Shown here: in pieces, positions 33,561 through 34,049 of the stretch
Numbering within the stretch: the stretch's first letter is position 1
Layout of the letters: each line of letters starts with the position of its first letter
Assembly (NCBI RefSeq): GCF_058153355.1
Contig: NZ_CM177019.1
DNA: 64,000 nt
Direction: 5' to 3' (one strand)
Translations under genes and position numbers: made by a program
Notes under the pieces: generated by a model
The model's database searches: none
Seen by the model: the letters and a program-made list of their open reading frames with translations, nothing else
Told to the model about the DNA's origin: nothing

Positions 33561-34049
33561 TACCTCCCCAGCCGCAAATACCGGGTAACCTGATACTTCA
33601 CAATAAGATTGGTGCGTGGATGATAGATTGCCAAATAATAATCCATAAAGAAATAATGACAACAAAAAACATCAAGCATTACTAATGTTATTTGGCCATA
33701 TAAAACATTAATAACTCTTGACCTTTCCTGACATTTTCCATATTCGCAATCATATTCTGTTTAGACGGTGTTTATAAACATCATGCATAATGAAATCGTC
33801 ATGTTATTTGGCGATATAAAAAAGTCTTTGAAAATACTCTCTACAACAAGTGCAGTTATAAGCTTGTTGTGACTGAGCGTCCTTGTGATTTAAAGATATT
33901 ATCGTTCTTCATCAGATGTAATAACTCAGGAAATTATATTTTCAGGGTGACAGGCTAATCAAGAATGATTCTTTTTTATAAGCAATAACAGAATGACTGA
34001 ATTGTTATATTTCTTTATTCAGCTGCTTAAATATAAACTTTGGAGAATT

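Follow-up and report, generated by a model that had tools for sequence, protein, structure and literature searches.

A 21-bp repeat flanking the transcription start of the Escherichia coli F9/Fml fimbrial operon and its possible relation to H-NS silencing

The F9 locus and its promoter

The stretch of DNA analysed here, 64,000 nucleotides of contig NZ_CM177019.1 (assembly GCF_058153355.1) and referred to throughout as the window, carries the Escherichia coli F9/Fml (ydeQRST, c1931-c1936) chaperone-usher operon adjoining ydeP, and our subject is a 21-bp sequence that occurs twice in the promoter region of its major subunit gene, fmlA. The genes follow one another in the order fmlA, chaperone, usher, ydeS, ydeR and ydeQ beside ydeP, and their products contain the PapD, Usher and FimH lectin domains of Pfam. 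The fmlA coding sequence occupies 34050..34613 on the plus strand, and its counterpart in the closest genome, WL297, is annotated by RefSeq as FimA-type. F9/Fml fimbriae have a role in chronic urinary-tract infection, low-temperature biofilm formation and attachment to plants. The original prediction had placed the repeats in an AT-rich region upstream of a fimbrial major subunit, and this description is accurate: the guanine-plus-cytosine (GC) content of 33595-34049 is 30%, against 47% for the window, and the ATG of fmlA lies at 34050.

The promoter of the orthologous operon is known from strain CFT073, where rapid amplification of 5′ cDNA ends placed the f9 start 251 nt ahead of the ATG, at a G preceded by a −35 element TAGTCG, an 18-bp spacer and a −10 element CATAAT (Wurpel et al. 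2014, PMC3966885). Promoter prediction, which had been proposed as a check, recovers the orthologous element TAGACG-18-CATAAT at 33762-33791 of the window. Both a promoter scan and homology to the CFT073 promoter identify TAGACG (TAGTCG in CFT073) as the −35 element at 33762..33767 and CATAAT, invariant in all alleles, as the −10 element at 33786..33791, each on the plus strand and separated by 18 bp. By homology to CFT073 the transcription start would be the G at 33798 on the plus strand, 252 nt upstream of the ATG, giving fmlA a putative 5′ leader of 252 nt (33798..34049, plus strand). The equivalent G in L002, an allele of the CFT073 type, lies exactly 251 nt from the ATG, as published.

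Structure of the repeat

Copy 1, ATGTTATTTGGCCATATAAAA (33685..33705), and copy 2, ATGTTATTTGGCGATATAAAA (33801..33821), both lie on the plus strand in direct orientation, with their starts 116 bp apart, and are equal at 20 of 21 positions, the sole difference being C or G at position 13; the coordinates and spacing first reported for these direct repeats are confirmed, with a match of 20/21. With transcription starting at G33798, copy 1 falls at −113..−93, copy 2 falls at +4..+24 among the first nucleotides to be transcribed, and the pair brackets the promoter. The identity of the copies far exceeds chance. A degenerate 21-mer pattern matches the 64-kb window twice, at copies 1 and 2, against 0.01 matches expected, and when the intergenic region (32% GC) was shuffled 300 times with its dinucleotides preserved, no 21-mer direct repeat with at most one mismatch arose.

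Copy 1 contains a 16-bp quasi-palindrome with the half-sites TTATTTGG and CCATATAA, in which 7 of 8 positions are symmetric, and a repeat search reveals longer inverted arms around it (33667-33689 and 33704-33726, 78% complementary), bearing out the earlier observation that this copy sits inside an approximate palindrome centred on GGCC. Copy 2 shows a similar but weaker palindromic symmetry. A third, inverted and partial copy, TTATTTGGCAATCTA, is found on the minus strand at 33624..33638, centred at about −167 and present only in the rare promoter allele to which the window belongs; it lies 49 bp upstream of copy 1 and also upstream of 33667, where homology to the common allele starts. The 9-mer core TTATTTGGC occurs five times in the window, against 1.07 expected, with three of the five within 190 bp. 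When up to two mismatches are allowed, the 15-nt motif TTATTTGGCNATNTA has five matches in the 64 kb (0.92 expected), four of them in the fmlA promoter, and copies 1 and 2 each fit it on both strands. The centre spacings of 116 and 64 bp correspond to 11.0 and 6.1 helical turns.

If one 7-nt gap is admitted, gapped local alignment extends the repeat upstream, and the flank of copy 1, AAACATCAAGCAT (33667..33679, plus strand), resembles AAACATCATGCAT (33776-33788), which lies upstream of the −10 element and overlaps it. Only 0.6% of shuffles equal this similarity. The downstream flanks are unrelated, and a full 116-bp tandem duplication finds no support there or in Tandem Repeats Finder, which returned nothing. 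Judged from these alignments, copy 1 is most likely a decayed or gene-converted duplicate of a segment of the core promoter extending from about −22 to +24.

Coincidence with predicted H-NS motifs

In the CFT073 promoter, motifs for the global silencer H-NS have been predicted at −111, −103, +8, +14, +57 and +89 (PMC3966885). In L002 one half of copy 1 is the 10-mer at −111 (TGTTTATAGC) and the other half that at −103 (GCCATATAAA); copy 2 likewise consists of the 10-mers at +8 (TATTTAGCGA) and +14 (GCGACATAAA). The paired repeats are two motif pairs of the published promoter map, in a paper that never calls them a repeat. The expectation that paired sites in a fimbrial promoter region mark binding sites agrees with this arrangement, in which the copies bracket the promoter and fall on protein-binding motifs known from published predictions. 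H-NS is the sole protein shown to bind the F9 promoter region; it shifts a 251-bp fragment of the CFT073 promoter, and an hns mutant derepresses F9 (PMC3966885). The H-NS consensus is tCGATAAATT/TCGATATATT (Lang et al. 2007, PMC2094087), and scanning the window with it yields matches of 7/10 at +8 (minus strand) and +14 (plus strand), inside copy 2. Footprinted H-NS sites at fimB agree with this consensus at only 5-7 of 10 positions (PMC3173223).

Variation of the promoter among genomes

A related promoter, about 85% identical to that of the window, is present in 4259 of 5426 complete E. coli genomes, while the window allele itself occurs in 18. Homology between the two allele classes starts at 33667, 18 bp upstream of copy 1, and the DNA upstream of −131 is unrelated: the common allele has there the 3′ end of a decayed AraC-type pseudogene (yneL in K-12, ECs2114 in enterohaemorrhagic E. 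coli, EHEC), the window unrelated DNA with fragments of insertion sequence (IS) and hydrolase genes. Thirteen alleles share without change a 28-nt block, CATGCATAATGAAATCGTCATGTTATTT, that comprises the −10 element, the start and the first half of copy 2, and the most conserved 21-nt segments begin at 33782-33789. Within copy 2, 18 of 21 columns are invariant, placing it at the 76th percentile; copy 1 is variable within both allele classes. Of ten alleles measured, nine space the copies by 116 bp and one by 115 bp. At position 10 of the motif both copies carry G in the window-type allele and both carry A in the common allele, a pattern that fits gene conversion or shared descent, albeit at one position only.

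A genome scan with FmlA gave mainly type 1 FimA paralogues, and the closest locus outside E. coli (Citrobacter, 76% identity) had no promoter homology, so that the search yielded no outgroup promoter for the near-identity of the copies. In one sequence, L012, a window-type fmlA (99%) stands behind a common-type promoter, from which it follows that promoter and coding alleles recombine independently. This sequence (L012 2125-3561, JARKOR010000214.1) comes from a contig of a metagenome-assembled genome named ‘Candidatus Nanosynbacter’ that carries the E. coli dif site and the common-type F9 promoter, and it is evidently mis-binned E. coli DNA.

State of the operon and its surroundings

The F9 usher gene is interrupted by an IS66-family element at 35980-38445, with open reading frames for HTH_Tnp_1, TnpB_IS66 and DDE_Tnp_IS66. 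The usher fragments lie at 35728-35982 and 38454-40856, with a short target duplication. As the gene is intact in WL297, the F9 operon is probably non-functional in the present strain.

Upstream, a perfect E. coli chromosome dimer-resolution site, dif (GGTGCGCATAATGTATATTATGTTAAAT), is found at 26879-26906. It lies only about 550-600 bp from the f9 start in the common alleles, which makes F9 its direct neighbour among operons. WL297 differs in possessing hipBA and, just before dif, a filamentous prophage in two tandem copies, none of which the window has (26627-26877; L070 5321-27088); the prophage genes of WL297 encode replication protein II/X, coat and attachment proteins, Zot and a secretin. 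In the window a truncated autotransporter region of the ECSE_1600 family ends almost directly at dif. The island between dif and F9 encodes a 400-aa leucine-rich-repeat protein (28610-29812, minus strand) and a 654-aa ankyrin-repeat protein (30945-32909, plus strand), both with eukaryote-like repeats, and the ankyrin-repeat gene is followed by fragments of IS481, helix-turn-helix and alpha/beta-hydrolase genes (about 32965-33594).

Two further features of the promoter region may be recorded. A promoter-like sequence, TTGCCA-18-AATAAT (10/12), reads toward fmlA from the plus strand at 33628-33657, in allele-specific DNA; its −35 element TTGCCA overlaps the third, inverted copy of the motif, and it may be a candidate second, upstream promoter of the rare allele. 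Between the repeats, at about −70, CTGACAT (33728-33734) is a near match to the PhoB half-site CTGTCAT, and a second half-site at the 11-bp spacing is absent. F9 genes are down-regulated in a pst mutant of avian pathogenic E. coli (PMC2648988). PhoB was rejected as the protein that binds the repeats, the matches to the published Pho-box pattern lying off them at −43..−22 and −146..−125.

H-NS silencing as a possible explanation of the repeats

We tentatively favour, with slightly less than even confidence, the view that the copies are upstream and downstream silencing sites of the H-NS type that bracket the known F9 promoter, and that their near-identity derives from duplication or conversion. 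We infer that the 21-mers are nucleation sites and that both are bridged by the protein. H-NS would nucleate at the TpA-rich copies and spread through the 30% GC region, and by bridging the upstream and downstream sites it could occlude the promoter or trap RNA polymerase, until silencing was lifted by conditions that weaken H-NS or by a counter-silencer. At a separation of 116 bp, or 11.0 helical turns, the copies would face the same side of the DNA. Such a mechanism does not require them to be nearly identical.

The arrangement can be compared with characterized H-NS promoters. CFT073 f9 (fml, c1931-c1936; PMC3966885) is the orthologous locus, with the same succession of −35, 18-bp spacer, −10 CATAAT and G start, a leader of 251-252 nt, and predicted H-NS motifs at −111/−103 and +8/+14 that fall on copies 1 and 2. 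The window differs in having the rare allele (18/5426), only about 85% identical, with sites that match at 20/21 rather than 15/21, an extra inverted copy at −167 and unrelated DNA upstream of −131. With the H-NS-silenced proU and bgl operons (PMC2094087) F9 shares an AT-rich promoter and TpA-containing, consensus-like sites on both sides of the start, and an hns-dependent phenotype has been published for the F9 orthologue; unlike them, F9 has sites with a GC-rich core in a region where 6-7/10 consensus matches are frequent, and its contacts are predicted ones.

A number of points weigh against H-NS silencing through these copies. Copy 1 matches the H-NS consensus at only about 6/10, and matches of 7-8/10 are common in this AT-rich region, with eleven in 489 bp. 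The GGCC/GGCG core is unusual for H-NS. The published binding work does not resolve H-NS contacts to the 21-mers, and the 251-bp gel-shift fragment was published without its bounds and may not include copy 1; Table S1 of Wurpel et al. is without gel-shift primers. A literature search for independent H-NS binding data at yneL/ydeT gave nothing usable, and a 2025 study of CFT073 found F9 to be without thermoregulation between 23 and 37 °C. Since the usher gene is broken by the IS66 element, selection on the promoter may currently be relaxed. With 14 of 21 columns invariant among 13 alleles, copy 1 is at the 21st percentile, below the regional average, which argues against strong constraint. In the common allele (about 4240 genomes) the two sites match at 15/21, the mean best score of shuffled sequence, although they are still its best 21-mer direct pair. 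The strong repeat is accordingly specific to the rare allele. Measured against what the original prediction named as refuting it, a motif not conserved at orthologous loci and without associated promoter activity, the outcome is mixed: promoter activity belongs to the region, while the repeat relation drops to chance level in the common allele.

Alternative explanations

The main rival account, which we regard as unlikely, makes copy 1 a remnant of a short duplication or conversion of core-promoter DNA, without function in regulation; copy 2 would then owe its conservation simply to its place near the start, within the promoter. The flank similarity across a 7-nt gap, which takes in the −10 region, would be expected of such a relic, as would a below-average, within-class variable copy 1 beside a copy 2 and a −10/start block that are the most conserved, and a common allele whose sites match no better than shuffled sequence. 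Against it, the flanks in the window-type allele have decayed around a 21-nt core that still agrees at 20/21, all ten alleles measured share the spacing of 115-116 bp, and the 9-mer core is found a third time close by. Alternatively, the copies might be operators of a sequence-specific dimeric regulator, with a dimer on each 16-bp quasi-palindrome and looping between the sites at −167, −103 and +13, or of a counter-silencer of the MarR/SlyA type acting against H-NS; looping would resemble the repression loops of gal or nag, and counter-silencing that at fimB. We consider this account distinctly unlikely, and its more specific form, in which the three in-phase 15-bp quasi-palindromes TTATTTGGCNATNTA of the rare allele (about −167, −103 and +13) are operators that loop or counter H-NS, quite improbable. 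The excess of the 15-nt motif, its fit on both strands of each copy and the near-whole helical turns speak for operators, while copy 1 is poorly conserved, the third copy is confined to the rare allele, and the account is without a candidate protein. SlyA recognizes a TTAGCAAGCTAA-like palindrome with outer triplets TTA and TAA (McVicker et al. 2011, PMC3173223). Copy 2 of the common allele, TTAGCGACATAA, matches the SlyA consensus at 9/12 with both critical outer triplets, and as at the SlyA/H-NS operators of fimB a TTA-N6-TAA-like palindrome overlies H-NS matches; yet 10% of shuffles score as well, the sites are 116 bp apart rather than adjacent, and the window copies (TTGGCCATATAA and TTGGCGATATAA, 8/12) have the left triplet broken, with TTG for TTA, so that a SlyA operator was rejected. 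The NagC/Mlc operator, a 23-bp quasi-palindrome with TT/AA at ±5,6 and C/G at ±11 (PMC4288165), was likewise set aside: TT-N9-AA, the sole invariant feature of such sites, occurs within 33600-33900 only in the two copies, but in this register, off-centre from the palindrome, they are self-complementary at only 6-8 of 23 positions and have G/T or T/G at ±11. As to linked regulators, the common allele has between dif and the F9 promoter the C-terminal HTH_18 remnant of an AraC-type protein (L008 1183-1449; L003 4741-4949, yneL of K-12), which is at most 154 aa long in 243 of 243 database homologues and absent from the window; a reporter for it showed hardly any expression in EHEC. Although annotated in places as a fimbrial regulator, it has some homologues with GlxA-type names, which suggest a decayed metabolic regulator rather than a fimbrial one. 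The motif is not known to have a convincing match to the consensus sites of CRP, IHF, Fur, ArcA, OmpR, MarA, GadE or TorR or to the DnaA box. In none of the genomes examined does the operon have an intact regulator gene linked to it. The dedicated regulator first proposed for these sites is not supported: the sole demonstrated binder is the global silencer H-NS, and the neighbouring AraC/GlxA-type pseudogene is never intact and is missing here.

The original prediction had also raised a switch-like control element, and among such elements fimS (FimB/FimE) belongs to the closest paralogous fimbrial system and has short repeats around the promoter of the major subunit. The promoter might invert as at fimS, since inverted 9-bp cores at 33630-38 and 33804-12 flank a 195-bp segment, or the direct copies might recombine to delete it, but we hold either to be very improbable. 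The 9-bp cores of the window-type allele are exact and enclose −35, −10 and start. The fimS switch also uses 9-bp inverted repeats, and trans-acting recombinases of the fim type exist in E. coli. Copies 1 and 2 are, however, direct, the common allele has no left inverted copy, and comparison with the fim switch region of L065 detected no homology. One orientation was found in all 21 alleles (18 complete genomes, the window and two metagenome contigs), with no form deleted by 116 bp. The predicted inverted junction, TTGCCAAATAA joined to CATGACGATTTC, had no matches in the metagenome collection, which tells weakly against inversion between the repeats because the native junction was present in only two contigs. 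No tyrosine recombinase is annotated in a region reaching roughly 7 kb to the upstream side of the promoter and 16 kb to its downstream side, a check made on the WL297 stretch colinear with 26877-52478 and extending upstream in the window no further than about 21900; the 400-aa open reading frame at 28610-29812 encodes the leucine-rich-repeat protein, not an integrase. That a trans-acting fim-type recombinase inverts the 195-bp segment is still less likely than the three operators discussed above. The Dam/Lrp switch of pap is alike in that a pair of similar sites, separated by about 100 bp, precedes the gene for a fimbrial major subunit, but it was discarded as a model, as F9 has no GATC in 33562-34049, no papI/papB-type genes, and one site downstream of the start. 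With direct repeats, no GATC pair, no recombinase nearby and 21 of 21 alleles colinear, the switch is not borne out. F9 adjoins dif, a place where mobile elements integrate, and the copies could be remnants of earlier integrations in the form of degenerate, dif-like attachment sites. The perfect dif at 26879-26906, its closeness to the f9 start in common alleles (about 550-600 bp) and the tandem filamentous prophages at dif in the closest genome speak for the idea, and the context of copy 2, GCATAA-N8-TCATGTTATTT, agrees with the dif arms at 14/22; this is no more than shuffled sequence gives as its best score on average, and 77% of shuffles reach it, the true dif scoring 22/22, and a Xer/dif-related relic was dismissed as being at chance level. 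We find it scarcely credible, as we do the proposal that copy 2 is conserved as part of a regulatory RNA structure, such as a thermosensor, in the first 24 nt of the leader. The 252-nt leader is long, and translational and transcriptional fusions behaved differently in EHEC; its fold z-score is −0.43, compensatory change affects none of 80 predicted pairs, Rfam models give no match at E≤1, and copy 1 lies outside the transcript of the mapped promoter.

Implications

Taken with the locus and the promoter described for CFT073, the region is an ordinary AT-rich fimbrial promoter of the H-NS type, largely already described, and not a new switch. What the repeat adds is that the two published pairs of predicted H-NS motifs are two copies of one quasi-palindromic motif flanking the start site. 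Were the three quasi-palindromes of the rare allele operators after all, the lineage carrying it would possess a control circuit for which the common allele has no counterpart. Copy 1, copy 2 and the spacing between them offer a concrete and cheap target for mutagenesis, and the rare allele, with its near-identical copies and a third, provides a natural variant in which the quality of such sites can be related to silencing.
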